The position numbers and the translations under genes are program-made. This document shows positions 2,884-29,307 of a DNA stretch of 32,000 nt, in pieces (positions within the stretch are counted from its first letter, which is position 1; every line of letters begins with the position of its first letter). The notes beneath the pieces were generated by a model that saw only the letters and a list, made by a program, of their open reading frames with translations, had not been told where the DNA came from and searched no databases. Source of the stretch: Opitutales bacterium (GTDB lineage: Bacteria > Verrucomicrobiota > Verrucomicrobiia > Opitutales > PNEW01); assembly GCA_965219535.1 (NCBI GenBank), contig CBDCNV010000001.1, forward strand, positions 900,001-932,000. The letters run 5' to 3'.

Positions 2884-3032
2884 AATTTACTTTTTTACTC
2901 AGATTATAAGAAAGGAGGTAAGGCGAACTTTTTGCAAAATGATTTTTAAGTAAGCGTACAACCCACCGTCTTGATTGTGAAGGAGGGTGGCTCCTGCTTG
3001 CCTTACTCGACCAGCTACGGTTTGCGCCATTT

Positions 3033-3215
3033 CGATTGTCGATTGAGTTTCTTCTCTATTGTCATTGCGAGAAGCAACGCGACGAAGCAATCCAGGGGGA
3101 TGTCAATACGTGATCGGCATTCCCCTGGAATGGAAGATGTCGCTGCGCTCGGTAGCTGCAATCGGCTACGCCTCCTTCGCAATGACAATAAGAAATCAAT
3201 CCGCATTTCGCAATC
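3033..3215. repeat. Long imperfect inverted repeat (arms about 3033-3074 and 3174-3215) enclosing a diverged copy of the GC-rich core (3095-3155)
   Basis: There is a perfect 13-bp complement: attgtcattgcga (3058-3070) against tcgcaatgacaat (3177-3189). It extends outward: cgattgagtttctt (3040-3053) against aagaaatcaatccg (3190-3203) with indels. The loop contains gggggatgtcaat...gctgcgctcggtag, which aligns to the core at 5621-5679, and an inner 7-bp stem CCAGGGG (3092-3098) / CCCCTGG (3122-3128). Confidence 0.55.
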
Positions 3216-3257
3216 CGTACCGAGAGCGTAGCTCGACATCCTCTATCCGCAATCGAT

Positions 3258-5519
3258 TCACTCTATCGTCAGTTCTTCTATCGTCACTGTAATCTCATCT
3301 CCATCCTCGTTGGCGAAGGTGGCGACAACACTTTGTGTCGGTTGAGGCGTTTCGTCAGACTTGAAGTTGTTTTGCGTGATCAGGGTTTCAAACCCGGTCG
3401 TTGTCGATCCACTCTCCGCGACTACGATCGAAGCGCCGTTCGTCTGCAAGAGGTCTCCACCGGTGATCCGCAACCCGGGGTTGCCGGCCGGTACCGTGAA
3501 GGATCCCTCACCAAAGAGAAGGTGCGGTACCGCATCGCCATCGGCATCGATGTCGCCCACGGTCAAACGTACCGCGATCGGCAAGCCGCGCGCATCGAAG
3601 CCGATCTTGCCGGTGCTTCCACTGAAGACGGTGTTCGATAACTGCACCCCTCCCAGTCCCGTGGAGTTGACTACTTCCACGAGGGCCACGTCTGCCTGGG
3701 CGTCATAGACCTGTCCTTCGGGGAACAGTGCCTGGTTAAAGGCGTTGATCCTTCCCCCCGTGAAAATGCTGAAGAAGGTATTGGCGTCCGCTCCATCGAT
3801 GACCACGCTGGGCTTGCCCGTCACATATTCGACGGCCTGGTTGTAGCGTGGGGGTATGGCCGGGGGTAGGAAGGTGGCCGGGTCCAGGGTTACGGTAAAG
3901 GTACCGTTACCTGAGAACTCTACCTGCACAATGTCCTCGTTTTCGTCCATGAAGGAAACACGGGTGATCTGTCCCGGTTTGGACTGGAGTTGGACGGACT
4001 CTCCGGTGAGTAATATCTGGTCGAAGACGTTGCCGTTGGCATGCTGAATGTCTTCCCCGGCGATATCGCCCGAGCCGTCAAGGACGAGGGGAATGGAAGG
4101 CGCTGCTACGGTGATGACTGCGGTATCGCTGTCAGCGGTACCGCCGGCATTAGTTATTTGTGCCCAGTAGTTCGTGCTCGCGGTGAGCGCACCGGTAGTT
4201 AGTGTGCTTCCGGTCGCGCCGGCGACGGGAGCTGCGGTGTCACCGCTGTTACCGGTAAACCACTGGTAAGTGAGATCGTCACCGCTGGCGGTGACGGTCA
4301 AGCTGGCTGAAGCGCCAGACTGCACTTCCTGGCTCGCGGGCTGGGTGGTGATCGAGGGTGCATCCGCGGGTGGGGGACCCTCGGAGCCGCTCCCAGGGGC
4401 GCCGATCGGGGTAAACCCGAAATCGTCGATACCGTTACGGGTAAATAAACCAGCGTTCACATCTTCATCATCAATATAAACAATCCTCCCAATACCTCCG
4501 GGTGCTCCCAATTCATCTGCATTAAAGGTAAGAAAAGTGGGTTTAAATTCCGGATGAACAACCGTCTCCATGTCTGTTACAGTCACGAGCAGGTTATCAT
4601 TAGTATCGTAGACTTCGATAGAGCAATCGATTTCTGTCTGCCCCGAGGCACTTTCACAATTTGCATAAAAATCCACCTCATAAGCCGGAGTTTCAAAGGT
4701 GATGGTGAATTCCCCATCTCCAGCCTCTACAATAAAAGATTGGTTAAAAGAATGTTGTGATGGGCCGCCGCTACTAGATCTAATACCCCCTCCACTACCA
4801 CCAGTACTGGTAAAAGTAGAGGTATAAGGAGAAGTCCCAATAGAAAAAGGTTCCAGTCTGCCATCACCTGGTCCAAATCCATCACTCGCCTCAAACCGGG
4901 TAAAGACCGTATTATTGTTGGGCTTATCCGTGGGCGTGTAGCCAAGATCATCAATGGAAAATTTACCTGTAACATTGAGAATCTTTACTTCTTTTATACC
5001 TTCAATGAATTCCAGATCCGTGGCATCAAGAAAATTGCCGCTGTCAGCAATAAAGCTTTGCAAGGCAGGGTTGGCTCCCGGGCTGATGTTAGCCGGTAGT
5101 CCTACAACTTCACCATTATCTCCTATCACTCTTAAAACTTCAGCAACTCCGCCGCTGCCTAATCCGAACCCGCTATTTCTATCTCCTCTGACTTCGATTT
5201 TGCCGCCCCCTGTTGATTCGGCCGCGTAAAATTCTAAGGTATTAATCCCGCGGGGGCTGACAATTAATCCTTCCTGACCGGGCGCAAGGGTTATCGCTTT
5301 CGATCCCGAGTGTAAAAGCGCTGGATCTTCTAATGTCTCTACGGTGAAGCCAATGAACTGGATATCATTCGGCGGACTACCGAGTCTAAAATCTCCCGAT
5401 CCTTCGGCATCCTCAAAATCGAGAAATACTTCCTGATCTTGAGGAAGAGCTGACAGGTGCACCGGTAAATAGAGCAAAAGAATCAGAATCGGGGATATTT
5501 TTACAGGTTTTCTATTCAT
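3258..5519 (-). CDS. Secreted multidomain protein of unknown function (signal peptide, two diverged N-terminal repeat modules, Ig-like domain, conserved C-terminal module of about 285 aa); paralog 1
   Basis: 753-aa ORF with a signal-peptide-like N-terminus MNRKPVKISPILILLLYLPVHLSALPQ. It has internal repeats (..LEFYAAESTGGGKIEVRGD.. and ..VDFYANCES..IEVYDT..) and an Ig-like segment ITTQPASQEVQSG..LTYQWFTGNSGDT..YWAQITNAGG..AVITV. A paralog lies at 17653..19884. I did not recognise a catalytic motif. Confidence 0.8.
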   Translation of the reverse strand: MNRKPVKISPILILLLYLPVHLSALPQDQEVFLDFEDAEGSGDFRLGSPPNDIQFIGFTVETLEDPALLHSGSKAITLAPGQEGLIVSPRGINTLEFYAAESTGGGKIEVRGDRNSGFGLGSGGVAEVLRVIGDNGEVVGLPANISPGANPALQSFIADSGNFLDATDLEFIEGIKEVKILNVTGKFSIDDLGYTPTDKPNNNTVFTRFEASDGFGPGDGRLEPFSIGTSPYTSTFTSTGGSGGGIRSSSGGPSQHSFNQSFIVEAGDGEFTITFETPAYEVDFYANCESASGQTEIDCSIEVYDTNDNLLVTVTDMETVVHPEFKPTFLTFNADELGAPGGIGRIVYIDDEDVNAGLFTRNGIDDFGFTPIGAPGSGSEGPPPADAPSITTQPASQEVQSGASASLTVTASGDDLTYQWFTGNSGDTAAPVAGATGSTLTTGALTASTNYWAQITNAGGTADSDTAVITVAAPSIPLVLDGSGDIAGEDIQHANGNVFDQILLTGESVQLQSKPGQITRVSFMDENEDIVQVEFSGNGTFTVTLDPATFLPPAIPPRYNQAVEYVTGKPSVVIDGADANTFFSIFTGGRINAFNQALFPEGQVYDAQADVALVEVVNSTGLGGVQLSNTVFSGSTGKIGFDARGLPIAVRLTVGDIDADGDAVPHLLFGEGSFTVPAGNPGLRITGGDLLQTNGASIVVAESGSTTTGFETLITQNNFKSDETPQPTQSVVATFANEDGDEITVTIEELTIE

Positions 5520-5600
5520 GGTGTTACAATGGTTATAGCATTGTCATTAAATTGCCTAAGTAAAAGTGCTGGTGTTTAATAGTCGAGGGTTATGCAAATT

Positions 5601-5706
5601 GTCGATTTCCGATTTCCGATGAGGGATGTCCATCCGTCGCACGAGGCTATGGACGACAGGCGGGCTGCGCCCTCGGTAGTCGATTCGTGATTTCGGATTG
5701 ATTGAC
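5601..5706 (+). repeat. Composite intergenic repeat: 59-nt GC-rich core (5621-5679) flanked by CGATTTC-type 7-nt periodic sequence
   Basis: The core gagggatgtccatccgtcgcacgaggctatggacgacaggcgggctgcgccctcggtag recurs at 12235-12294 (+) and 21088-21146 (reverse complement). The left flank is tcgatttccgatttccgat and the right flank is tcgattcgtgatttcggattgattg. Confidence 0.7.
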
Positions 5707-5797
5707 TCCTTTTAAATTACCATTTTTAAATCAGACTGTCATGGATAATCTCAACTGCACTAATGTCAATAGTGCTGGGAAGTAAGGAAGTTATGAG

Positions 5798-7390: not shown

Positions 7391-7547
7391 GTGGCATAAG
7401 GGGTCAAACGTAGAATTTAAATGTTATCGACCGATGCCAAATTTCTAATCTTATGAAAATTCATCCATGCTCCATTGTTCATGATCCAAGGAATACTTGT
7501 CAGCTTATCAATCTTTAAATTCTACGTTTGACCCTTTTACCTAATCC
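7391..7547. mobile_element. MITE-like 157-bp element with 21-bp perfect terminal inverted repeats, copy 1
   Basis: TIR-L ggggtcaaacgtagaatttaaa (7400-7421) and TIR-R tttaaattctacgtttgaccc (7514-7534). The whole 157 bp, including the outer gtggcataa and ttttacctaatcc, recurs at 13181-13337 (3 substitutions by eye) and 16070-16229. It has no ORF of meaningful size and lies between the convergent GH51 and SBP-permease genes. Confidence 0.7.
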
Positions 7548-7550
7548 TTA

Positions 7551-10500
7551 TTACCGACTACCTCCTTCCATTCGTATTCGTGGATCGAGCCATAAAAGTA
7601 ACAGGTCGCTGACCAGGGTGCCTAAGACACCGAGCAAGCTGAGAACCATGAGCATCGATCCGGCCAAGTACATATCTTCCTTCATCAGAGCATCCAGCAT
7701 TAAAGGACCAACCGTGGGTAGGCTGAGGACCATGGCGACGATCGCACCCCCAGAGACTAATGATGGAAAAATTCCCCCGATTCCAGAGATAAAAGGATTA
7801 AGCGCTAAACGCACCGGGTATTTCATTAACAGCTTAAACGGTCGCACTCCCTTGGCCATAGCAGTAATGACATAGGGTTTTCTCAACTCATCAAGTAAGT
7901 TGGCCCGCATAATCCGTATCATGCCCGCAGTACCCGTGACGCCCAAAACCACTACAGGCACCCAAATATGCTGCAAGAGGTCAATTATTTTACCCCTCGT
8001 CCATTCTGGTTGGACTGCATATTCAGGTGAAAATAGACCCGAGATATTAATGCCTAGATACTTACCGCTCCAATAAAGCAGGATCAAGGCGAGGAGAAAA
8101 CTGGGAACACTCATCCCGATGAATCCTATCAATGTAAATAAATAATCGCTAAAGGAATATTGGCGAACTGCTGAATAGATGCCGATGGGCATAGCTACAG
8201 CCCAGGTAAAGAGTATAGTGCCGAGTGAAATGAGAAAAGTGAGAAGGATGCGATCACCTACCACATCATTGACCGTGCTCTGGTTCTCCATCGACAATCC
8301 CAAGTGACCTTGCAATAAACCCTGGTCTTTTTTTTCATAGGAAGTGAACCATTTAAGACCGAGCCAGCGGACATAACGTTCGGCGATGGGCTTGTCGAGG
8401 TGAAAGATCTCGCGCAGCTTTTCGGCCTCATCGATATTTATGCGGCCGCCTTTTAGCTGTAGCTCTAAAATTTTGGTCTCGATGTAATTCCCCGGAGGCA
8501 GCTGGATGATAACAAAAGAGATTACCGAGATGATAAGAAGCGTTGGACCCATGATGAGTAGTCGTCTTCCAACATACGGATGCCGTATCCCGACCATAAT
8601 TATTCCGCAAATCGCGATACCTAAAAATATGTATTTTATAAGCCGCGCCAAACGCTCATAACTGGTTGATTCTAGATCGTCTTGACCGGATCCGAAAGGA
8701 GCAGGGGTGATTTCTACTAATCCTTTTTTTATCTGCGCAATGGTTCCAGGCGAATTATAAGGTTCTTTGAAGTAGTAGGTTTCTAATCCTGCGTGGGCCG
8801 GTGGACTGAAGCGAGCGCCATAGAATGCATTGCGCGGAACATTTTTAAAACCGTTTTTAACCAGGACCGGGTGCGGTGGAGGGGTGGCAATATTTATCGA
8901 CCAGACATTTTCCGCAGCGATATCAAACACTTCATTGAAAATCTCGCGTTGGGCTTCACGCGTGGTTTTACCGTAAGCTTCTTCAATGAGTTTCATCGAT
9001 AGACGTACGGGATGATCTTTCGATGGCTCGAGGCCGCCGAATTGTGTGGCTTCAGGATTGCCTGAAAGTCCATCTCTATTATACCAATTAAAATAGCCGT
9101 AAGCTTGGAGTGCAGTTAATGCGAGGAAACGTTCGGGTGCTATGATGGGATTGAATTCGCTCTCCGAGGCCCAAATGGAAAATTCCAGTTTGCGCGAGTT
9201 TGTTTCTACTTGAAAAAGAGCAAGCGACGGTTGGCGTCGGATGGCGCGAATGCCAACGCGGCTCCAATTTTCGATTATGAGCTCAGTCGGCCCTTCGTCT
9301 TCCCCCTGTGGTAGAGTATAATGCCAGCTCATGCGTGTGCCGTCCTTGAACGTGCGGTAGCCTTCGGTATCCCGCCGGGTGAGGCCTATCGCATCGAGCA
9401 GTTGATTAGCTCGGGCGGGCGCATACTCGGTAAAGCTTTTATGAAGTTTTTCATGGTAGAAAAAGGATTCCTTCCCGGGTGATAACTGCGCCGGTTCTCC
9501 CACCCCATTGTAGACTATGTCAATGATTTGCTGGCGATTGATGGCGAGTGAGAGCGCCTGGCGGAAGCGTTTATCATTGAGGAGATCATGTTTCATTTGG
9601 GTAACCGGATTATCAGAGTCTACCAAAATATTAATATTTGGATGGACGAGGTAGCGTGATCGTGTAGCTGGAAACCAGTGATAGACTTCGTAATCGTTTT
9701 TTTCGCGTTGTGACATGAGCAGGGTGTAATAGAAATCCATAACAAAAATTGTAAAGGTGATGGCCCCGCTAGCCGCTGCTATAGGTACCAGCTTATAGTT
9801 TTTTACTTCGATATGTAATTGGTCCACATAAGGGAGCTGATTGCCTTCGGTATCGACTGCCCAGTAGTAGGGATTGCGTATAAAAATCTGGGGTGGATTG
9901 GCTTTAAAAGTGTGATAAACCCAGGGCCAAAGACGCGGATGTTCGGGATTGTACCACTGTTTCAATAAAGCGTATAGGCTACTACGCGAAGGTATCCTGC
10001 TTTTCGCCTGGGTGGCCTCAATAAGCATATCATCGCCGAGTTCCGGGTGGTATTTTTCCAGGTAATGTCGAGGTGAACAAAAATCCCAGGCTCGAGCCAA
10101 GCGTTCAAGAAACGCTCCATAGGGTTGAGAAAAAACGAATTTTACAGTGTAATCATCGATTTTGATAACTTCCCCTGTCTTTCCACCTATTTTCATCCAA
10201 TCTGGCGGAACACTCCCGCTTAATTCAGGAGCTGTTTCTTTATACCATCTGTAGAGGATATCGTCGGCAGAAAAAGGGTGACCATCAGACCACTTCATGC
10301 CTTCTCGCAGATAAAATGTCCATTCCCTCTTGTCAGGGGTGGATTCCCAACCCTTGGCCACGTGAGGTACGATCGGGTAACCAAGCGGAGACCAGCGAAC
10401 AAGCGTGGATCCGGAAAAGAAGTTTCCGATGAGACTTATCTCGTTTTGTGATCCTCTCACTTGGAACCAGGTTCCACCGTATTCACCGATACTGTCCACT

Positions 10501-10835
10501 CCTTTAAGGATCACAGGTTCCATCCCCACACGCTCGGCCACCGGTGGCAGTTTGTCCTCGTCTACCAATTCGGCAAGGATGGGTGATTCGGATTTTGGAT
10601 ACCACTGGGTGCCCTCTCCCTCACTGTAGTCGACATCCTGTTGTATCTTAAAAAGGTCATCCTCGGTAAAACTGACATCCCTTAATTTTTTTGTATATTC
10701 AATCACCTCCTCACTATAGCGAATAGGCTCCTTCTCCATTACCGGTTTTAAAATATCGCCCCAAAAATAAATAAATCCGAATAAGAGACAGCCAGTGAAA
10801 ACAGTGAACCCAAAAAATCTGAAACATTTTATCAC
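7551..10835 (-). CDS. Fusion protein: N-terminal membrane anchor + family-5 (Opp/Dpp-type) substrate-binding domain + OppB/DppB-type ABC permease domain
   Basis: 1094-aa ORF with a GTG start. The N-terminal hydrophobic anchor is FFGFTVFTGCLLFGFIYFW. SBP_bac_5-like blocks follow (LPPVAERVGMEPVILKGVDSIGEYGGTW.., MKWSDGHPFSADDI). From about residue 735 the sequence is permease-like (RRLLIMGPTLLIISVISFVIIQLPPGNY), with the EAA-loop YVITAMAKGVRPFKLLMKYPVRLALNPFIS and the ending ..WLDPRIR. Confidence 0.8.
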   Translation of the reverse strand: MIKCFRFFGFTVFTGCLLFGFIYFWGDILKPVMEKEPIRYSEEVIEYTKKLRDVSFTEDDLFKIQQDVDYSEGEGTQWYPKSESPILAELVDEDKLPPVAERVGMEPVILKGVDSIGEYGGTWFQVRGSQNEISLIGNFFSGSTLVRWSPLGYPIVPHVAKGWESTPDKREWTFYLREGMKWSDGHPFSADDILYRWYKETAPELSGSVPPDWMKIGGKTGEVIKIDDYTVKFVFSQPYGAFLERLARAWDFCSPRHYLEKYHPELGDDMLIEATQAKSRIPSRSSLYALLKQWYNPEHPRLWPWVYHTFKANPPQIFIRNPYYWAVDTEGNQLPYVDQLHIEVKNYKLVPIAAASGAITFTIFVMDFYYTLLMSQREKNDYEVYHWFPATRSRYLVHPNINILVDSDNPVTQMKHDLLNDKRFRQALSLAINRQQIIDIVYNGVGEPAQLSPGKESFFYHEKLHKSFTEYAPARANQLLDAIGLTRRDTEGYRTFKDGTRMSWHYTLPQGEDEGPTELIIENWSRVGIRAIRRQPSLALFQVETNSRKLEFSIWASESEFNPIIAPERFLALTALQAYGYFNWYNRDGLSGNPEATQFGGLEPSKDHPVRLSMKLIEEAYGKTTREAQREIFNEVFDIAAENVWSINIATPPPHPVLVKNGFKNVPRNAFYGARFSPPAHAGLETYYFKEPYNSPGTIAQIKKGLVEITPAPFGSGQDDLESTSYERLARLIKYIFLGIAICGIIMVGIRHPYVGRRLLIMGPTLLIISVISFVIIQLPPGNYIETKILELQLKGGRINIDEAEKLREIFHLDKPIAERYVRWLGLKWFTSYEKKDQGLLQGHLGLSMENQSTVNDVVGDRILLTFLISLGTILFTWAVAMPIGIYSAVRQYSFSDYLFTLIGFIGMSVPSFLLALILLYWSGKYLGINISGLFSPEYAVQPEWTRGKIIDLLQHIWVPVVVLGVTGTAGMIRIMRANLLDELRKPYVITAMAKGVRPFKLLMKYPVRLALNPFISGIGGIFPSLVSGGAIVAMVLSLPTVGPLMLDALMKEDMYLAGSMLMVLSLLGVLGTLVSDLLLLWLDPRIRMEGGSR

Positions 10836-11183
10836 GCCAGTTTTTATTAATCATGAATTAACACAAATCACACGAATAAACGCACCAGGGAACCAGCTTT
10901 CGCCCCGCAACCAGCAGAACTGATGACGACCATCTTTTGTTCCGCTGTGGCGGAACTAGGGACAGCAGGCAGGCGGGCTTCGATGGGCTCAGCTGTAGTG
11001 ATCCTCTGAGGCAGGGGCCGTAGAGGGTTTCTGTGGAGTAAAACTTATCAATCCAGCGTCGAAAAGCGCAAGAGGTTGGTAGATTTTCACCAGGCGAAAC
11101 ACAAGTGTAATTGCGGAGAAGCGACGCCCGTTTAGTAGGGGACTTAAGGGCTGGAAATCTACCCCGTTAATGGATCGTAATTA

Positions 11184-12041
11184 TTAGCCGCGGTTTAAAC
11201 CTCTTGTTTCTAATTCTTTTCGAAATTCTTCGAAATCCAAATCAAAATAACCGAACTTTCGCATCGCTTTAACCCATTGTGCGCGGATGGGGTGTTCTTT
11301 AGTGTTTAAATGCCATGCCTGAAGCTGTTGCAAATAGGTTTCGTTTTCCAAGGCACGCCTGGCATCCTTTCTACTTAAACCCTCATAATGTTCACGAAGC
11401 ACTGTCTCCTGCTCAGGTGTTCGGGGGTATCCTTTGTATCCGAAACTTGTCATCGGTCGGTCATCTCTTCCGCCATAACTGGAATGCCAACAAGCGGTGC
11501 TGTAGATTATTACATCGCCCGGATTATTCTTACAGACATAACCCGGTAAACTGAGAATCTCATTCGGGTGGTTATTATCGGGATGATTTCTCATCTCACT
11601 GACTAATTCTTTTAATTCGGTATATAACGGGGCTACATCACTCGAGGGGATGATACGTAAGGCACCGGAGTCAGCATCGAGTGGTTCGAGATAAATAGAG
11701 ACATTAATTCCGTGCCTGCGACCAGGTAGGAATTTCCCACTGAGATAAATTCCGACATCTGGATGCCAGCGTGTATTGCCATTAAATGAATGAATCTGGC
11801 ATGGCATTCCAATAGGATCCTTGCCTAGTAACTGTTCAGCTATCGCGTAAAAGCGTGGGCTTTCTGGTAGCCCCGATAGAAAGGGGGATCTTTCATCGCT
11901 GACTGGGAGATCGGGTCTTGTTTCTATAATCGCTGTATTGTATTCATTAATGATCGTTTCCATGTTGTCTTCGGTGAACTCCTGCCTGAGAATGATAAAC
12001 CCAAACGTATTGAAAGTTTTTAACTCAAGATCGGTAAGCAT
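11184..12041 (-). CDS. Fe(II)/2-oxoglutarate dioxygenase, phytanoyl-CoA dioxygenase (PhyH) family
   Basis: 285-aa ORF with a PhyH-style N-terminus LTDLELKTFNTFGFIILRQEF, an HxD facial-triad candidate WHPD, and a distal His in PGDVIIYSTACWHSS. Confidence 0.7.
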   Translation of the reverse strand: MLTDLELKTFNTFGFIILRQEFTEDNMETIINEYNTAIIETRPDLPVSDERSPFLSGLPESPRFYAIAEQLLGKDPIGMPCQIHSFNGNTRWHPDVGIYLSGKFLPGRRHGINVSIYLEPLDADSGALRIIPSSDVAPLYTELKELVSEMRNHPDNNHPNEILSLPGYVCKNNPGDVIIYSTACWHSSYGGRDDRPMTSFGYKGYPRTPEQETVLREHYEGLSRKDARRALENETYLQQLQAWHLNTKEHPIRAQWVKAMRKFGYFDLDFEEFRKELETRGLNRG

Positions 12042-12198
12042 TGGTTGGCGTCCTTTGAAGTAGTAGTCGTCTGATACTCAGGTATTCATCTTATTTATTT
12101 ATCTCTAACTGAACACGCTCCGAAAGCATAAGCAAACCAAGAATTATTGGCCGCAGTTTTCATAACCACCAGAAGCTGCGTGTCACACATTCATGTTA

Positions 12199-12327
12199 GA
12201 GGAGGAGGTGGGGTTGGAGGAGGAGAAACGATTTGGGGGATGTCCATCCGTCGCACGAGGCTATGGACGACAGGCGGGCTATGCCCTTGGTACGCATTCA
12301 CGCGTAATCGTTCTCCTTCATCCTCTC
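12199..12327 (+). repeat. Composite intergenic repeat: GC-rich core (12235-12294) flanked by inverted GAGGAG-type periodic arms
   Basis: The core gggggatgtccatccgtcgcacgaggctatggacgacaggcgggctatgcccttggtacg differs from the 5621-5679 copy at a few positions. The left arm is gaggaggaggtggggttggaggaggagaaacgat. The right arm atcgttctccttcatcctctc is its imperfect reverse complement (atcgtt + ctcct matched). Confidence 0.65.
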
Positions 12328-12424
12328 TTGTCATTGCGCAGACGGGTACATTTATATTCCACGTTTGCCCCCTTTTTCTTCTCTTGTATAAACCTCAATT
12401 GCCACTTATTCATTGGAGCTCGCC

Positions 12425-13180: not shown

Positions 13181-13337
13181 GTGGCATAAGGGGTCAAACG
13201 TAGAATTTAAATATTATCGACCGATGCTAAATTTCTAATCTTATGAAAATTCATCCATGCTCCATTGTTCATGATCCAAGGAATACTTGTCAGCTTATCA
13301 ATCTTTAAAATCTACGTTTGACCCTTTTACCTAATCC
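13181..13337. mobile_element. MITE-like 157-bp TIR element, copy 2
   Basis: Near-identical to 7391-7547, with TIR-L at 13190-13211 and TIR-R at 13304-13324. It lies between the convergent HD and GNAT genes. Its right end overlaps the last 7 nt of the GNAT ORF, including the stop codon. Confidence 0.7.
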
Positions 13338-16069: not shown

Positions 16070-16229
16070 GTGGTGACATTAGGGGTCAAAGGTAGAATTT
16101 AAATATTATCGACCGATGCCAAATTTCTAATTTTATGAAAATCCATCCATGCTCCATTGTTCATGATCCAAGGAATACTTGTCAGCTTATCAATGTTTAA
16201 ATTCTACGTTTGACCCTTTTACCTATTCC
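16070..16229. mobile_element. MITE-like TIR element, copy 3 (more diverged, 3-bp insertion near the left end)
   Basis: TIR-L ggggtcaaaggtagaatttaaa (16082-16103) and TIR-R tttaaattctacgtttgaccc (16196-16216). It has about 8-9 differences from copy 1 by eye and lies downstream of desaturase 16360..17466. Confidence 0.65.
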
Positions 16230-16231
16230 CA

Positions 16232-16262
16232 TAACGCGGTAGGGACACCGCGTTCCACCATC
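16232..16262 (-). repeat. GGTGGAACGCG hairpin family member (short-loop variant)
   Basis: The perfect 7-bp stem is aacgcgg (16233-16239) / ccgcgtt (16248-16254) with the 8-nt loop tagggaca, followed by ccaccatcat. Its reverse complement aligns with 29051-29110 and 7348-7374. Confidence 0.55.
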
Positions 16263-16284
16263 ATAATGTTGTAAATAACTGGAG

Positions 16285-16320
16285 AGACGAAGACGAAGAC
16301 GTGGACGATGACGAAGATAA
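16285..16320. repeat. Six tandem units of a 6-nt GACGAA-type repeat
   Basis: The array reads gacgaa gacgaa gacgtg gacgat gacgaa gataag. The same unit builds the arms of the element at 28963-29272. Confidence 0.6.
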
Positions 16321-16359
16321 GATTTTAACCGCCAGGCAAAATCGGCAATTGGCTTTCCT

Positions 16360-20059: not shown

Positions 20060-20160
20060 TTCGGGCAATGCAAGGTGATTGCAATGCTGCGCCCTCGATT
20101 GTCGATTGAGTGGAATGGCAACCAGTCGTCGCCAAGGCTATGCCCGGCAGGCAAATGGCA
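20060..20160. repeat. Degenerate or rearranged fragments of the GC-rich core family
   Basis: ctgcgccctcg (the core 3' end) is followed by tcgattgtcgattgagt, which is identical over 17 nt to 3032-3048. Next comes cagtcgtcgccaaggctatgcccggcaggc, which resembles the core middle ccgtcgcacgaggctatggacgacaggc. Confidence 0.35.
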
Positions 20161-21087: not shown

Positions 21088-21146
21088 CTACCGAGGGCGC
21101 AACCCACCTGCCGTCCATATCCTCGTGCGACGGATGGACATCCCTC
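21088..21146 (-). repeat. GC-rich core repeat, reverse-complement copy
   Basis: The reverse complement reads gagggatgtccatccgtcgcacgaggatatggacggcaggtgggttgcgccctcggtag, which has 4 substitutions relative to 5621-5679. Confidence 0.7.
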
Positions 21147-21157
21147 AATAGACATTT

Positions 21158-21193
21158 CAATTTCCGATTTCCGATTGCCGATTTTCGATTTGG
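21158..21193. repeat. Left inverted arm: about 5 units of a 7-nt (C/G)CGATTT repeat
   Basis: The sequence is caatttc cgatttc cgattgc cgattttc gatttgg. The reverse complement of 21641-21677 aligns to it. Confidence 0.65.
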
Positions 21194-21269
21194 AGGATGA
21201 TGAGCTTCGCGCTCGGTACAATAGACAGGGTGTTAATGGTTTTCGGAATTATCCGATTAATAAATTTAT

Positions 21270-21623
21270 ATGGACTCTAATATATTGAAGCAACGGACTA
21301 AAAACTTGGCAATGCGTATACTAAAGATGGTCGAAACTTTACCTAATACATCAACCGCAAGAATTATAAGCCATCAAATCATACTGTCTGGGACCTCAGT
21401 AGCCGCAAATAATCGGGCGGCGTGTCGTGCAAGAAGTAAAGCAGAATTTATTGCAAAACTAGGAATTGTGGAAGAAGAGGCTGATGAAACACTCTTTTGG
21501 CTCGAACTGAGCGAAGAAACAGGACTGTTACCATCCAATCGACTTAAAGATATCAAACAAGAAGCTAACGAAATTACTGCAATTATTGTGTCTTCACGCA
21601 AATCTGCTAAATTTCCTCAATAA
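21270..21623 (+). CDS. Four-helix-bundle protein (23S rRNA intervening-sequence protein family, PF05635/TIGR02436-like; same fold family as DGR Avd)
   Basis: 117-aa ORF with the family-typical pattern: LAMRILKMVETLP..ARIISHQIILSGTSVAANNRAACRARSKAEFIAKLGIVEEEADETLFWLEL. It is on the opposite strand to both neighbouring genes. Confidence 0.85.
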   Translation: MDSNILKQRTKNLAMRILKMVETLPNTSTARIISHQIILSGTSVAANNRAACRARSKAEFIAKLGIVEEEADETLFWLELSEETGLLPSNRLKDIKQEANEITAIIVSSRKSAKFPQ

Positions 21624-21640
21624 TTAATTTTATATTTAGT

Positions 21641-21677
21641 ATCAATCGGCATTCGCAAATCGCAAATCGGCAATTGG
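21641..21677. repeat. Right inverted arm: about 5 units of the 7-nt repeat in inverted orientation
   Basis: The sequence is atcaatcggc attcgca aatcgca aatcggc aattgg. Its reverse complement is ccaattgccgatttgcgatttgcgaatgccgattgat. The last two units are also present downstream of desaturase paralog 1 (16335-16352). Confidence 0.65.
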
Positions 21678-21684
21678 CTTTCCC

Positions 21685-22797
21685 TCAACCGATCATAAGC
21701 GCGGCCTCGCGCTCGAGGACATCGTCATCCGCGCAGTCGGCATTTTCACCTTCGACGGGCGATGGCAGTTCGGGGATGAAGGTGTAATCGGGGTCCTCGA
21801 GCCGTTTGCGGTGGATCTGCACTATTTCCTTCCATGTTGCCCATAGACCGTGGTGTGCCGGTGGCAGGTCGTGCTCGATAGCGGCGCGTAGTTTCGGTAA
21901 ATTGAAAAAGGGCACCGCCGGGAACATGTGATGCTCAATGTGGTACTGCATGTTCCAGTAGAGGAAGGCCGGTAGCCACGAGCAGGTATAAGTCCGGCAG
22001 CAGAGGCGGTGATCCGGTGTGTTCGGATTAAGTCCGGAATGTTGTGGTTGACCGCAGAGAAAACCCAGCCAATGGCAATAGTGTCTTCCATTGACAAGAA
22101 TGATTAGAAACCAGTATCCGGTAGCGATAAAGACCGCCGCCAGTGCCGCGTGGCCGAGAAGTGTGAACCTCGCCCAGTTGCGGTGCTCGCGGCGCAGCTT
22201 GGCGTCACTTTCGGGCATGATGAACTCATACCATTCGTTGTCCATTTTTCCAAACGCGCGCTTGGTATAGGATTTCAAAATATCCCAGGTTTGCAATGGG
22301 TTCCAGGCTAACAAATCAGTCCAGAATCGCCAGTCTTTGAACGTGAATTTGGACGGCAGCACCACCTCGCCGTCATAGTCGTCGTGGACTGTAACCTGGT
22401 GGTGCCTGATGTGGCTGGGTCGAAACCAGACGAAATCCCACCAGCCGAGGAATGAAAAAACGCGAAGAAAAAACTCATTCAACGCTTTCGTCTTGAACGG
22501 TGTCCGATGCATGAGTTCATGGCATGGCGCGCCGCCGAGGAAACGGCAGAAGGTGCCATGAACAAACAAGGCGGCGAGCAGAAGGGGGACAGACCAGATC
22601 CAGCTATCTGCATTTATTCGAAGGAAGACGAAGTAAGCCAGTGACCCAGTCAGGAAACACAATCCCAGGGAACCCAGGCAATGGGTTAGTCCCTGTAAAT
22701 CGCTCCGCTTGGTCAGCTCTTTCATCACAGCTGGATCAACCTTGCAGCGATACCAACTGATCGTCTTGTCTTTAACGAATTTTCGAGCGTCGCTCAT
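21685..22797 (-). CDS. Membrane di-iron fatty-acid desaturase/hydroxylase family protein, paralog 2
   Basis: 370-aa ORF collinear with 16360..17466, with the same His boxes (HELMH, HIRHH, HIEHH). About 60 nt of the 5' flank and about 25 nt of the 3' flank are also conserved between the two loci. Confidence 0.8.
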   Translation of the reverse strand: MSDARKFVKDKTISWYRCKVDPAVMKELTKRSDLQGLTHCLGSLGLCFLTGSLAYFVFLRINADSWIWSVPLLLAALFVHGTFCRFLGGAPCHELMHRTPFKTKALNEFFLRVFSFLGWWDFVWFRPSHIRHHQVTVHDDYDGEVVLPSKFTFKDWRFWTDLLAWNPLQTWDILKSYTKRAFGKMDNEWYEFIMPESDAKLRREHRNWARFTLLGHAALAAVFIATGYWFLIILVNGRHYCHWLGFLCGQPQHSGLNPNTPDHRLCCRTYTCSWLPAFLYWNMQYHIEHHMFPAVPFFNLPKLRAAIEHDLPPAHHGLWATWKEIVQIHRKRLEDPDYTFIPELPSPVEGENADCADDDVLEREAALMIG

Positions 22798-28927: not shown

Positions 28928-29307
28928 CAGTTTCCAATTAATTATGATAAATTTACAATAAAGCTTCGTCCACGCATGCCACGTCGTAGACTACTGGGGA
29001 AGACGGGTCTGCCTCTTCGTCTGCGTCCTTTCAATCACTAAATTAAATATCATGGTGGAACGCGCTGCCTGTCCGACATAGCCTTGGCAACGGCTGATCC
29101 CTAGCGCGTTTGATTATGTCGTGATTGAAAAATTGTGCTAGTGTTCAGCCTTAGTTATATATTATCAGGCTACATAGATCAGCAACCTGCACCAGCTTGG
29201 TTTGCAAGATTTATGTACAATTGTTCGAAAAGATCCACTAGAGACGCAGACGCGGACGAAGACGAAGATCCCTTGATGACTATTATGGCTCGCAGTTTCC
29301 AATTAAT
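28928..29307. mobile_element. ORF-less stem-loop element (about 350 bp) bracketed by a 15-bp direct repeat
   Basis: The direct repeat cagtttccaattaat occurs at 28928-28942 and 29293-29307; the second copy contains the dctM stop codon. Nested complementary arms are present: gcttcgtccacgc (28963-28975) pairs with gcggacgaag (29252-29261), and cgtctgcgtc (29018-29027) pairs with gacgcagacg (29243-29252). The inner hairpin is aacgcgct (29059-29066) / agcgcgtt (29103-29110), and its loop resembles the GC-rich core. Confidence 0.55.

Follow-up and report, generated by a model that had tools for sequence, protein, structure and literature searches.

Positions 12199-12327 of the stretch of DNA analyzed here hold a GC-rich centre between a purine-rich and a pyrimidine-rich arm, which raises the question of whether centre and arms form one structured nucleic acid or are pieces that came together as DNA. 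The stretch, referred to below as the window, comprises 32,000 nt of an Opitutales bacterium (assembly GCA_965219535.1, contig CBDCNV010000001.1, positions 900,001-932,000 of the forward strand). Our reading is that the feature is probably a decaying, gene-less fragment of a family of cassettes resembling the intervening sequences of 23S rRNA, modified by the insertion of a 31-nt hairpin and spread and reshuffled at the level of DNA. The evidence comes from the modular make-up of the elements, from sites that occur both filled and empty of the hairpin, from a cassette found in two flanking contexts, and from an orthologous locus at which the arms do not co-vary. The pieces make up a patchwork of repeats lying between genes and do not constitute a single RNA whose stem co-varies.

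The left arm (12199-12234, + strand) is a GAGGAG tract with one CGATT unit at its end, and the right arm (12306-12327, +; AATCGTTCTCCTTCATCCTCTC) starts with AATCG. The 59-nt centre between them, core A (12235-12293, +), consists of a module that we call module G (GGGGGATGTC ... GGGCTATGCCC TTGGTAC) split by a 31-nt hairpin module (CATCCGTCGCACGAGGCTATGGACGACAGGC; 12245-12275, +), the latter delimited by filled/empty alignments of a sister copy. The local hairpin of this insert pairs GTCCAT at 12242-12247 with ATGGAC at 12263-12268. Rfam searches at gathering and permissive thresholds returned no family at the cores, arms, or hairpin of the window. Comparison loci fetched from other genomes and metagenomes are labeled with L-numbers (e.g., L002, L059), and the DNA-level sample comprised ~100 kb of the Opitutales lineage plus six cassettes. 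When a 19-mer from the core centre was scanned in a genome collection, true matches were found only in two Opitutales metagenome-assembled genomes (MAGs); one of these, L002 (OY829953.1), shares 95.9% identity with the window across 3.4 kb.

Core A as a module split by a hairpin

Core A equals module G plus 31 extra bases. Module G is a GC-rich sequence of 28 nt (consensus GRGGGATGTC-GGGCNNNGCCC-TCGGTAG) that sits inside the left arm of the gene-bearing cassettes described below, and the insertion seen at 12245-12275 is absent from its copies in L067, L065, and L017. Three filled/empty pairs were recovered. Window positions 5606-5695, arms as well as centre, align with the L067 copy at every base outside CCATCCGTCGCACGAGGCTATGGACGACAGG; L013 1921-1950 is the filled counterpart of the contiguous CTCCTTC|GCAATGACAAT of window 3172-3189; and window 29066-29096 lies within a different element, M2, that occurs without the insert at L013 4862-4890. 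As these three pairs show, the conserved centre noticed earlier is a 29-31-nt insertion that landed in at least three different repeats. The insertion sites showed no clear target duplication, with a one-base ambiguity at two of them. The core is two-layered, module G of the cassette left arm forming one layer and the hairpin module inserted into it the other.

The window holds three copies of core A, at 5621-5679, 12235-12293, and 21088-21146(-), which are 87-100% alike (93-100% for 12235-12293 vs. 5621-5679). The second copy (5598-5706, +) carries its insertion at 5631-5661 and is flanked at 5598-5620 and 5680-5706 by CGATT-type heptamer units of one and the same orientation; its flanks are near-identical to those of the empty module G in L067. 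The third lies immediately outside the left arm of the window cassette. All three are in divergent (head-to-head) intergenic regions, filling 3 of the 4 such regions among 17 by hand count (roughly p 0.006), and those of L002, L005, and L013 are in convergent or tandem regions instead. Module G also occurs by itself within heptamer units (window 3217-3244(-), L017 8923, L065 2769 and 384, and L067 4802). The solo copy of the window (AGAGGATGTCGAGCTACGCTCTCGGTAC; element 3190-3257(-)) has CGGATT/CGATT units on its flanks and matches module G of the L059 cassette at 26/28 bases; the latter reads GGAGGATGTC-GAGCTTCGCTC-TCGGTAC, and its GGAGGATGTCGAGCTTCGCTCTCGGTAC is comparable to solo copies such as GAGGGATGTCGGCCTTCGCCCTCGGTAC. 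At 20086-20154 (+), the truncated 3' half of module G with a CGATTG array (20086-20111) stands beside a variant of the hairpin module (CCAGTCGTCGCCAAGGCTATGCCCGGCAGGCA; 20121-20154, +).

The hairpin itself is far more widespread than core A. A metagenome scan with its 20-mer (CCGTCGCACRAGGMTATGGA) returned 37 loci, ~28 of which carry the 20-mer as a hairpin in about a dozen unrelated contexts from soil, peat, freshwater, and marine samples, built as a variable stem, TCC GTCGCACRAGGCTAT GGA, and a complementary stem. Some 6 of the 37 metagenome matches and 13 of 16 genome matches were chance occurrences in coding DNA (isocitrate dehydrogenase in L048; sigma-factor-like genes in L018, L041, and L045) and were excluded. 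A scan of viral contigs for the 20-mer gave zero matches, Rfam gave none at the hairpin in 29 other loci, and no description of the 30-nt hairpin was found in the literature consulted; an Acido-Lenti-1 match in L038 is located away from the hairpin and was discarded as unrelated.

Among 24 distinct instances (alignment A1) the 7-bp stem covaries, with 83% of cells paired vs. 70.7% after shuffling and a score of 0.253 vs. 0.082 (both 0/500). Pair 7-33, for example, is CG in 9, UA in 8, and GC in 1 instance, and pair 8-32 is CG in 15, AU in 4, GC in 1, and UG in 1. Since the scan demanded the 20-mer, conservation of the loop is partly by construction, whereas the stem was unconstrained. In the Opitutales copies the register is shifted by two bases (GTCCAT/ATGGAC). 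Three contexts contain G-U pairs, which favours a role as RNA for the strand given here, and the 15-nt "loop" may pair internally (GUCGC/GCUAU) around a pentaloop, ACRAG, the site of the only variable base.

Arms of core A and loci with other centres

The first-pass annotation had described 12199-12327 as one of several loci sharing a core, flanked by inverted arms with a locus-specific repeat unit and maintained as a stem. The periodic tracts are indeed where it placed them, Tandem Repeats Finder returning period 7 at 5603-5620, 21160-21191, and 21653-21669 and period 6 at 16285-16317 and 29242-29268, and complementary arm pairs were measured at all four loci for which they had been proposed: 18 nt at 72% within 12199-12327 (12216-12233/12306-12323), 14 nt at 100% within 3033-3215 (3057-3070/3177-3190), 33 nt at 79%, with an inner 22 nt at 91%, within 21158-21677 (21158-21190/21644-21676), and 23 nt at 83% within 28963-29272 (29005-29027/29249-29271). 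It was also right that the arms at 5601-5706 are not Watson-Crick complementary (score 10 vs. shuffled 11.1). Compared with shuffles, predicted RNA folding was strong for 3025-3225 (z -5.6, 0/200), weak for 12190-12335 (-54.0 vs. -46.3 kcal/mol, standard deviation (sd) 3.5, z -2.2, 7/200), and no better than shuffled for 5590-5715 (z -0.9).

These loci do not share one core, however; they hold at least three unrelated centres, namely core A, M1, and M2. M1 is a long hairpin (3033-3215, +) with its centre at 3088-3170 and TATTGTCATTGCGA arms at 3057-3070/3177-3190, and it recurs with these arms (TTGTCATTGCGA) in L013 and L005. M2 (28963-29272) has GACGAA-type inverted arms (28963-29028/29241-29272) around a hairpin on the minus strand (29054-29111), which holds the hairpin-module variant at 29066-29096. 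A one-armed copy of M2 at 16233-16320 combines half of the element (16233-16261) with a GACGAA array (16285-16320), so that 16246-16306 is the reverse complement of 29007-29067 (61 nt, 70%). The GGGGTTGGAGGAG arm of 12199-12234 likewise stands beside core A at the non-orthologous L013 7298-7336. Because each arm type travels with its own centre, recurring at further loci and in further genomes, the arm unit tracks the element family and not the locus, contrary to what had been proposed.

Two other observations concern such elements. Window 16229-16359 and L002 3366-4419, whose neighbours are ~96% identical, differ in length (131 nt, made up of the half M2 and the GACGAA array, vs. 1054 nt); the L002 segment consists of a PhyH-like gene and a core A element, and the two genomes differ here by the presence or absence of about a gene's length of DNA with repeats at its borders. 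A relative of 81% identity (L056-L058, 3716-3900) has, ahead of its HD gene, GGAAGG/CCTTCC inverted arms around an unrelated centre (TCCCCTCCTTGCCAAGGAGGGG...), so that purine-rich inverted arms occur there with yet another core.

Flank complementarity of core A was scored for nine distinct copies (the three of the window plus a single copy from each of L002, L005, L013, L017, L024, and L051) as local Watson-Crick complementarity between 45-nt flanks, with 200 shuffles per copy. Only two copies exceeded their shuffles, window 12235 (21 vs. 12.6, sd 2.3) and L013 (20 vs. 10.5, sd 1.7; each 0/200). For the other seven the fraction of shuffles reaching the observed score was 0.075-0.88. Mismatched flanks paired as well or better, the left flank of L005 scoring 37 with the right flank of L013 against 21 for the best matched pair, and in three copies (window 5621, L002, and L005) the CGATT-type units are direct, not inverted. 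A wobble-aware version of the analysis, based on RNA duplex energies that count G-U pairs (by wobble pairing, CGAUUG is complementary to itself), gave a nominal p ≤ 0.025 in 3/9 copies and was judged unconvincing.

An orthologous locus, L059, was found through a search with the four-helix-bundle gene of the window cassette. It matches window 7683-12209 at 98.5% identity (L059 1-4515), where homology stops, and again from 12238 to 12383 at 97.3%. Core A is the same as in the window, and so is the right arm but for one substitution. In place of window 12210-12237 (+), which holds the bulk of the left partner in the inverted pair, L059 has 104 bases of unrelated sequence. Because one arm changed wholesale while the other stayed, we take the swap as turnover by recombination and not compensatory evolution; it is the opposite of the co-variation expected of a maintained stem. 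Two other routes to orthologues were abandoned: synteny of the HD gene as a source of empty sites at 12199-12327, since its neighbours differ in relatives of 81-89% identity and upstream regions were unalignable, and L005 plus L013 as counterparts of 5520-5797, where gene order differs and paralogues confuse the match.

These results bear on the view that core and arms constitute one structured RNA or cruciform with a selected stem and a functional element in the loop. That the closing stem of the inner hairpin truly covaries (0/500) speaks for such a view, as do the G-U pairs on the motif strand in three contexts, the terminator that follows the hairpin on the same strand in L031, and the folding of 12190-12335 somewhat above shuffles. 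The covariation is confined, though, to the 7-bp stem of a 30-nt module and does not extend to the periodic arms; two of nine core A copies have complementary flanks, matched flanks pair no better than mismatched ones, three copies are in direct orientation, Rfam gave no match, and L059 lost one arm while its partner stayed unchanged. We therefore regard a single selected stem as unlikely.

Cassettes of inverted heptamer arrays around S23p genes

Few kinds of small gene without an explained role are as numerous in bacterial genomes as the four-helix-bundle (S23p, PF05635) genes, and to our knowledge the origin of the rRNA intervening sequences that encode them has been an open question since 1990. 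The window holds a complete intervening-sequence-like cassette at 21158-21677 (+), which consists of a left array (21158-21193), a variant of module G (GGAGGATGATGAGCTTCGCGCTCGGTAC; 21192-21219, +), a 117-codon open reading frame (ORF; 21270-21623, +), and a right array (21641-21677), with an aldolase gene on one side and a desaturase gene on the other. The ORF is a member of the "23S rRNA intervening sequence protein" family (PF05635, E 1.7e-17; TIGR02436, E 1.6e-25; PDB 2rld, E 7.7e-18). At this locus, where a core had been placed in or beside the loop, the arms enclose the gene and core A sits outside the left arm.

Six cassettes from at least three lineages were examined (window, L059, L065, L067, L069 from soil, and L073 from Flavobacteriales), and all have inverted arms. 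Left/right complementarity was 28-47 vs. 14.4-15.3 for shuffled arms (sd ~2.4; 0/200 in 6/6), with 34 vs. 14.6 (sd 2.6, 0/200) for the window cassette, and all 12 arms showed an autocorrelation peak at lag 7. The left/right units are CCGATTK/MAATCGG in the window, CCGATTG/CAATCGG in L059, CGGATTG (three times)/CAATCCG in L065/66, TTCGATT (four times)/CAATCGA in L067/68, GCGGAAT/ATTCCGC in L069, and GCGGAWT/AATCCGM in L073. The arms of the distant L069 score 47 with each other against a mean of 19.8 with those from the remaining cassettes; a single unit type is common to the closely related Opitutales cassettes, and their arms cross-pair freely. In the predicted fold of 21150-21685 the arms close both the minimum-free-energy and the centroid structure. 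In gene-bearing cassettes, then, the periodic inverted arms are real, and the unit differs by subfamily while left and right still match. The proposal of a stem that is kept while its unit varies thus holds for the cassettes, in which every arm pair beat 200/200 shuffles, and fails for core A. Nor are the units free to vary, a consensus of NCG(G/A)(A/T)TT being common across lineages.

The evidence points to one common architecture of inverted arrays of a shared heptamer unit around a PF05635 gene. NCG(G/A)(A/T)TT arrays bracket the S23p gene and form with it a ~500-bp cassette that has the architecture of a 23S intervening sequence and lies outside rRNA. In the mechanism we propose, elements would spread as DNA by a transposition- or recombination-like route with conversion between copies, transcribed inverted arrays may fold into a long stem that RNase III would cut, by analogy with rRNA intervening sequences, and the gene-less copies would be products of decay or deletion, presumably with no function of their own.

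Three observations concern movement of the cassette. Window 21167-21662 corresponds to L059 4898-5393 (93.3% over 496 nt), with different DNA on both flanks, although the two genomes are 98.5% identical along 4.5 kb nearby. In L067/L068, a 512-nt cassette lies between perfect 25-nt direct repeats (4858-4882 and 5395-5419), the second of which overlaps the 3' end of a tRNA-Ser(cga) gene (L068 5402-5491(-)). In L069, the cassette (1498-1920) takes up exactly the space from the end of an RND adaptor gene, at its stop codon, to the start codon of an AcrB-like pump gene; if RNase III cuts its stem, the mRNA of the pump operon would be split there. Together, the common architecture, the differing positions, and the duplicated tRNA end make the idea of a mobile cassette testable and hint at the ligand of the protein.

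Several points weigh against this interpretation. Neither the cassette nor the window encodes a transposase, an integrase, or any other known mobility gene, and no target duplication was found at the window cassette or at copies of core A. The difference between L059 and the window includes a larger rearrangement, the HD gene being absent there, and so does not represent a clean insertion. The lineage sample of ~100 kb is too small for copy numbers. Cleavage of the cassette stem by RNase III is suggested by the analogy with rRNA intervening sequences. A further analogy would tie the hexamer (GACGAA, GAGGAG) arms, including those of 12199-12327, to the heptamer cassettes, and for these hexamer arms no gene-bearing counterpart was found in the DNA examined.

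The periodic tracts might instead be products of independent, microsatellite-like slippage that lie near the cores by chance. Heptamer number does vary between copies and, in Coxiella, between strains. Yet every strict CGATT array in noncoding DNA of the window adjoins core A, a related module such as module G, or the four-helix-bundle ORF, and all six cassettes have inverted arrays on both sides; this leaves the chance explanation, which the first-pass annotation had named as an alternative that could overturn its view, very improbable.

A different possibility is that the heptamer arrays are iteron-like candidate binding sites for a pentameric four-helix-bundle protein, in which case they would be maintained by sequence-specific binding and not by the stem, and the gene-less copies could be decoys or regulatory sites in promoters. 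NCG(G/A)(A/T)TT is common to at least three lineages although a stem needs pairing only, the copies of core A in the window occupy divergent promoter regions (3 of 4 such regions by hand count), and the nearest solved structure, 2rld, has five chains in the entry. Avd, a related protein of diversity-generating retroelements, binds nucleic acid. Such binding is, on the other hand, a prediction, the L002, L005, and L013 copies lie in convergent or tandem regions, and the S23p protein is apparently not made in Coxiella (PMC4990558). As an explanation of the locus by itself we consider protein binding improbable. It is nevertheless compatible with the mobile-cassette explanation, and its appeal is that different lineages keep the heptamer consensus, which base pairing by itself would not call for.

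The arrays also bear on annotation, as they account for odd repetitive N- and C-terminal tails on predicted four-helix-bundle proteins. The heptamer arms are often translated, giving N-terminal MRNSEFGMRN... and C-terminal ...DSAFRTPNSAFE or ...RQSAIGNRQS. A translated array was recognized by a heuristic pattern in 68 of 70 homologues with a C-terminal tail (113 homologues in all). Many four-helix-bundle proteins in databases have repetitive tails of this kind (...SAFRIPNSAFE, and MRNSEFGMRNE..., ...ADSAFRTPNSAFE, and ...RQSAIGNRQSAMP among homologues P0130-P0240), which are translated heptamer arms and hence over-extended gene calls. Beyond the Coxiella case, no general account of heptamer arrays around PF05635 genes was found in the literature consulted, nor any report that four-helix-bundle cassettes recently relocated outside rRNA.

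Genes in the window encode sulfatases, an arabinofuranosidase, TRAP and ABC transport proteins, and PhyH-type dioxygenases. A cyanobacterial origin was considered and rejected: the HIP1 octamer is absent, the genes are rich in sulfatases and glycosidases, and the window matches Opitutales MAGs. Three paralogue pairs are present: fatty-acid desaturases at 16360-17466/21685-22797 (93% across the 3' part together with 84 nt of downstream DNA), Ig-domain proteins at 3258-5519/17653-19884 (~77%), and tandem sulfatases at 13-1392/1525-2883 (~82%). The desaturase duplication took the outermost unit of the cassette right arm along, 16339-16359 matching 21664-21684. A 157-nt repeat resembling miniature inverted-repeat transposable elements (MITEs), with 24-28-nt terminal inverted repeats (AAGGGGTCAAACGTAGAATTTAAA), occurs at 7391-7547, 13181-13337, and 16073-16229 in copies 95-98% identical, and also at L002 4420-4578, L013 7432-7587, and L005 4632-4781; two of the window copies lie between convergent genes, and the repeat has no relation to the core family.

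The hairpin near GIY-YIG genes and the comparison with known systems

In two unrelated lineages (L027/L029/L037/L049 with their relative L042, and L046), the hairpin lies in reverse complement 20-25 nt upstream of genes for 79-residue GIY-YIG nucleases (L046 1170-1300; L027 13980-14030; L042 2840-3000; L029 1-340). In L046 it immediately follows the tmRNA gene, and L029 has three tandem units of 111 nt with a hairpin in each. Among relatives of the nuclease (L074-L080, one labeled Candidatus Berkelbacteria), the gene follows a tRNA gene and a hairpin of like build stands in the same position with another inner sequence (stem-GAAGC-N5-GCGAAG-stem); before it comes a palindrome in which the CCA end of the tRNA serves as the 5' strand. 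Hairpin and GIY-YIG genes are associated in these loci, which does not amount to a mechanism. No GIY-YIG gene occurs in the Opitutales DNA examined, and tblastn found no four-helix-bundle gene with the hairpin in other lineages.

Related arrangements were seen at further loci. In L074 613-800, L078 464-800, and L080 607-800, small GIY-YIG genes directly follow tRNA-Asp or tRNA-Ser in the order tRNA, palindrome (CCATCC TTCGC...GCTTC GGATGG), second hairpin with a U-run, and ATG, and in L078 part of the tRNA 3' end is present a second time; the layout looks like a tRNA-targeting mini-cassette. In L021 and L043 a GIY-YIG gene comes right after the tmRNA gene. In acidobacteria-like loci from soil and peat (L021 4480-4640 and L022, L026, L030, L035, L038, L040, L043, L050, and L053), the hairpin is nested in a palindrome, CCATCC-GTAGC...GCGAA-GGATGG, that keeps its GUA/GAA internal loop while the outer stem changes (CACTCC/GGAGTG in L046) and may be a repetitive extragenic palindromic (REP) sequence of the GTAG type.

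A wider reading, which we offer as speculative and doubtful, joins the two lines. Its first part would make the hairpin (stem-TCC GTCGC ACRAG GCTAT GGA-stem) an undescribed ultra-small mobile element or RNA motif common to Verrucomicrobiota and to lineages resembling acidobacteria, the candidate phyla radiation (CPR), and others, possibly with the ~79-residue GIY-YIG nucleases near tRNA and tmRNA genes as its partner. Its second part would make S23p genes with inverted heptamer arrays autonomous mobile cassettes, in which a protein pentamer would recognize the arrays and so provide mobility without a known transposase, rRNA intervening sequences being one landing site. An insertion of 30 nt whose 20-mer is identical between unrelated lineages would rank among the smallest mobile elements known, and the hairpin offers a first lead on these orphan small GIY-YIG nucleases.

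The first-pass annotation had judged that REP, CRISPR, and classical MITE descriptions all fit poorly, and this judgment stands. As to CRISPR, copies of the core are 6.6-15 kb apart and in both orientations. As to REP sequences, and the bacterial interspersed mosaic elements (BIMEs) and REPINs (paired REP sequences) that they form, the likeness lies in short intergenic palindromes arranged in mosaics, inverted pairs, and a possible GTAG tag, and CGTC-type REPs likewise lack a dedicated transposase (PMC3733652, PMC3116915). REPs could explain the elements if these are BIMEs or REPINs moved in trans by a REP-associated tyrosine transposase (RAYT) whose gene lies in another part of the genome, with GGTAG at the end of module G as the GTAG tag. 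Module G does end in TCGGTAG or TCGGTAC, GTAG repeats are reported to be abundant in Opitutus terrae and REPs to combine with other repeats into mosaics (PMC3733652), and in other lineages the hairpin stands beside the CCATCC-GTAGC...GCGAA-GGATGG palindromes. Described CGTC/GTAG REPs, however, are palindromes of 20-40 bp with an 8-9-bp stem, a 4-5-nt loop, and an unpaired end tag, whereas the hairpin has a 7-bp stem and a conserved 15-nt loop with CGTC inside it, and the GGTAG of module G follows its small hairpin instead of preceding it. On stem and loop geometry, membership among CGTC-type REPs was rejected. No Y1 transposase was found in the window or at any examined locus, the arrays are tied to PF05635 genes and not to transposase genes, and a link to four-helix-bundle and GIY-YIG genes is foreign to REPs. 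Movement of the elements by a RAYT is thus quite unlikely.

The resemblance to MITEs lies in a gene-bearing cassette accompanied by shorter, gene-less copies that share its ends, and a 25-nt direct repeat flanks one cassette (L067/L068). Complementary flanks were found in only two of nine core A copies, no target duplication was seen at the ends of these copies, the ORF of the cassette is not a transposase, and the cassette ends are periodic arrays, unlike the unique inverted repeats of MITEs.

Closer in function to the hairpin are the small dispersed repeats (SDRs) of Nostoc and its relatives, which Elhai et al. in 2008 are said to have described as 21-27-nt hairpin repeats with compensatory stem changes, often placed in tandem heptamer arrays or other repeats, and which they reportedly proposed as the smallest mobile elements. 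The resemblance is functional only: a 29-31-nt insert inside module G, within heptamer arrays, with covariation in its stem. Unlike SDRs, the hairpin has Verrucomicrobiota as host, an apparently different sequence, and one 20-mer across several unrelated lineages, and the heptamer arrays that host it go with one particular family of genes.

The family that does fit, overlooked at first, is that of the S23p cassettes with the make-up of intervening sequences. In Coxiella burnetii, the 23S intervening sequence has an S23p ORF and a 28-bp terminal stem cut by RNase III, with two to three tandem heptamers (GACAGAT) upstream of the ORF in a number that varies by strain; it is suspected to be a mobile element (PMC4990558). 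The 23S intervening sequences of Leptospira and Coxiella, long suspected more generally to be mobile or selfish (PMC4990558), share with the cassettes a PF05635/TIGR02436 ORF, long closing inverted repeats, and tandem heptamers of variable number. The cassette at 21158-21677 has the S23p ORF, the terminal inverted repeats, and the heptamers beside the ORF; 12199-12327 itself has no S23p ORF. The typical intervening sequence lies in a 23S rRNA helix (9, 25, or 45), whereas the window has neither tRNA nor rRNA (Rfam at gathering and E ≤ 5 thresholds; tRNA search). The cassettes further differ from 23S intervening sequences in that the stem itself is made of heptamer arrays on both sides, that an extra GC-rich module is present, and that gene-less fragments are spread through ordinary intergenic regions. 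Three known kinds of element are extended by these loci, namely S23p intervening sequences, REP/BIME-like mosaics, and SDR-like mini-insertions, and the mini-hairpin is the novel part.

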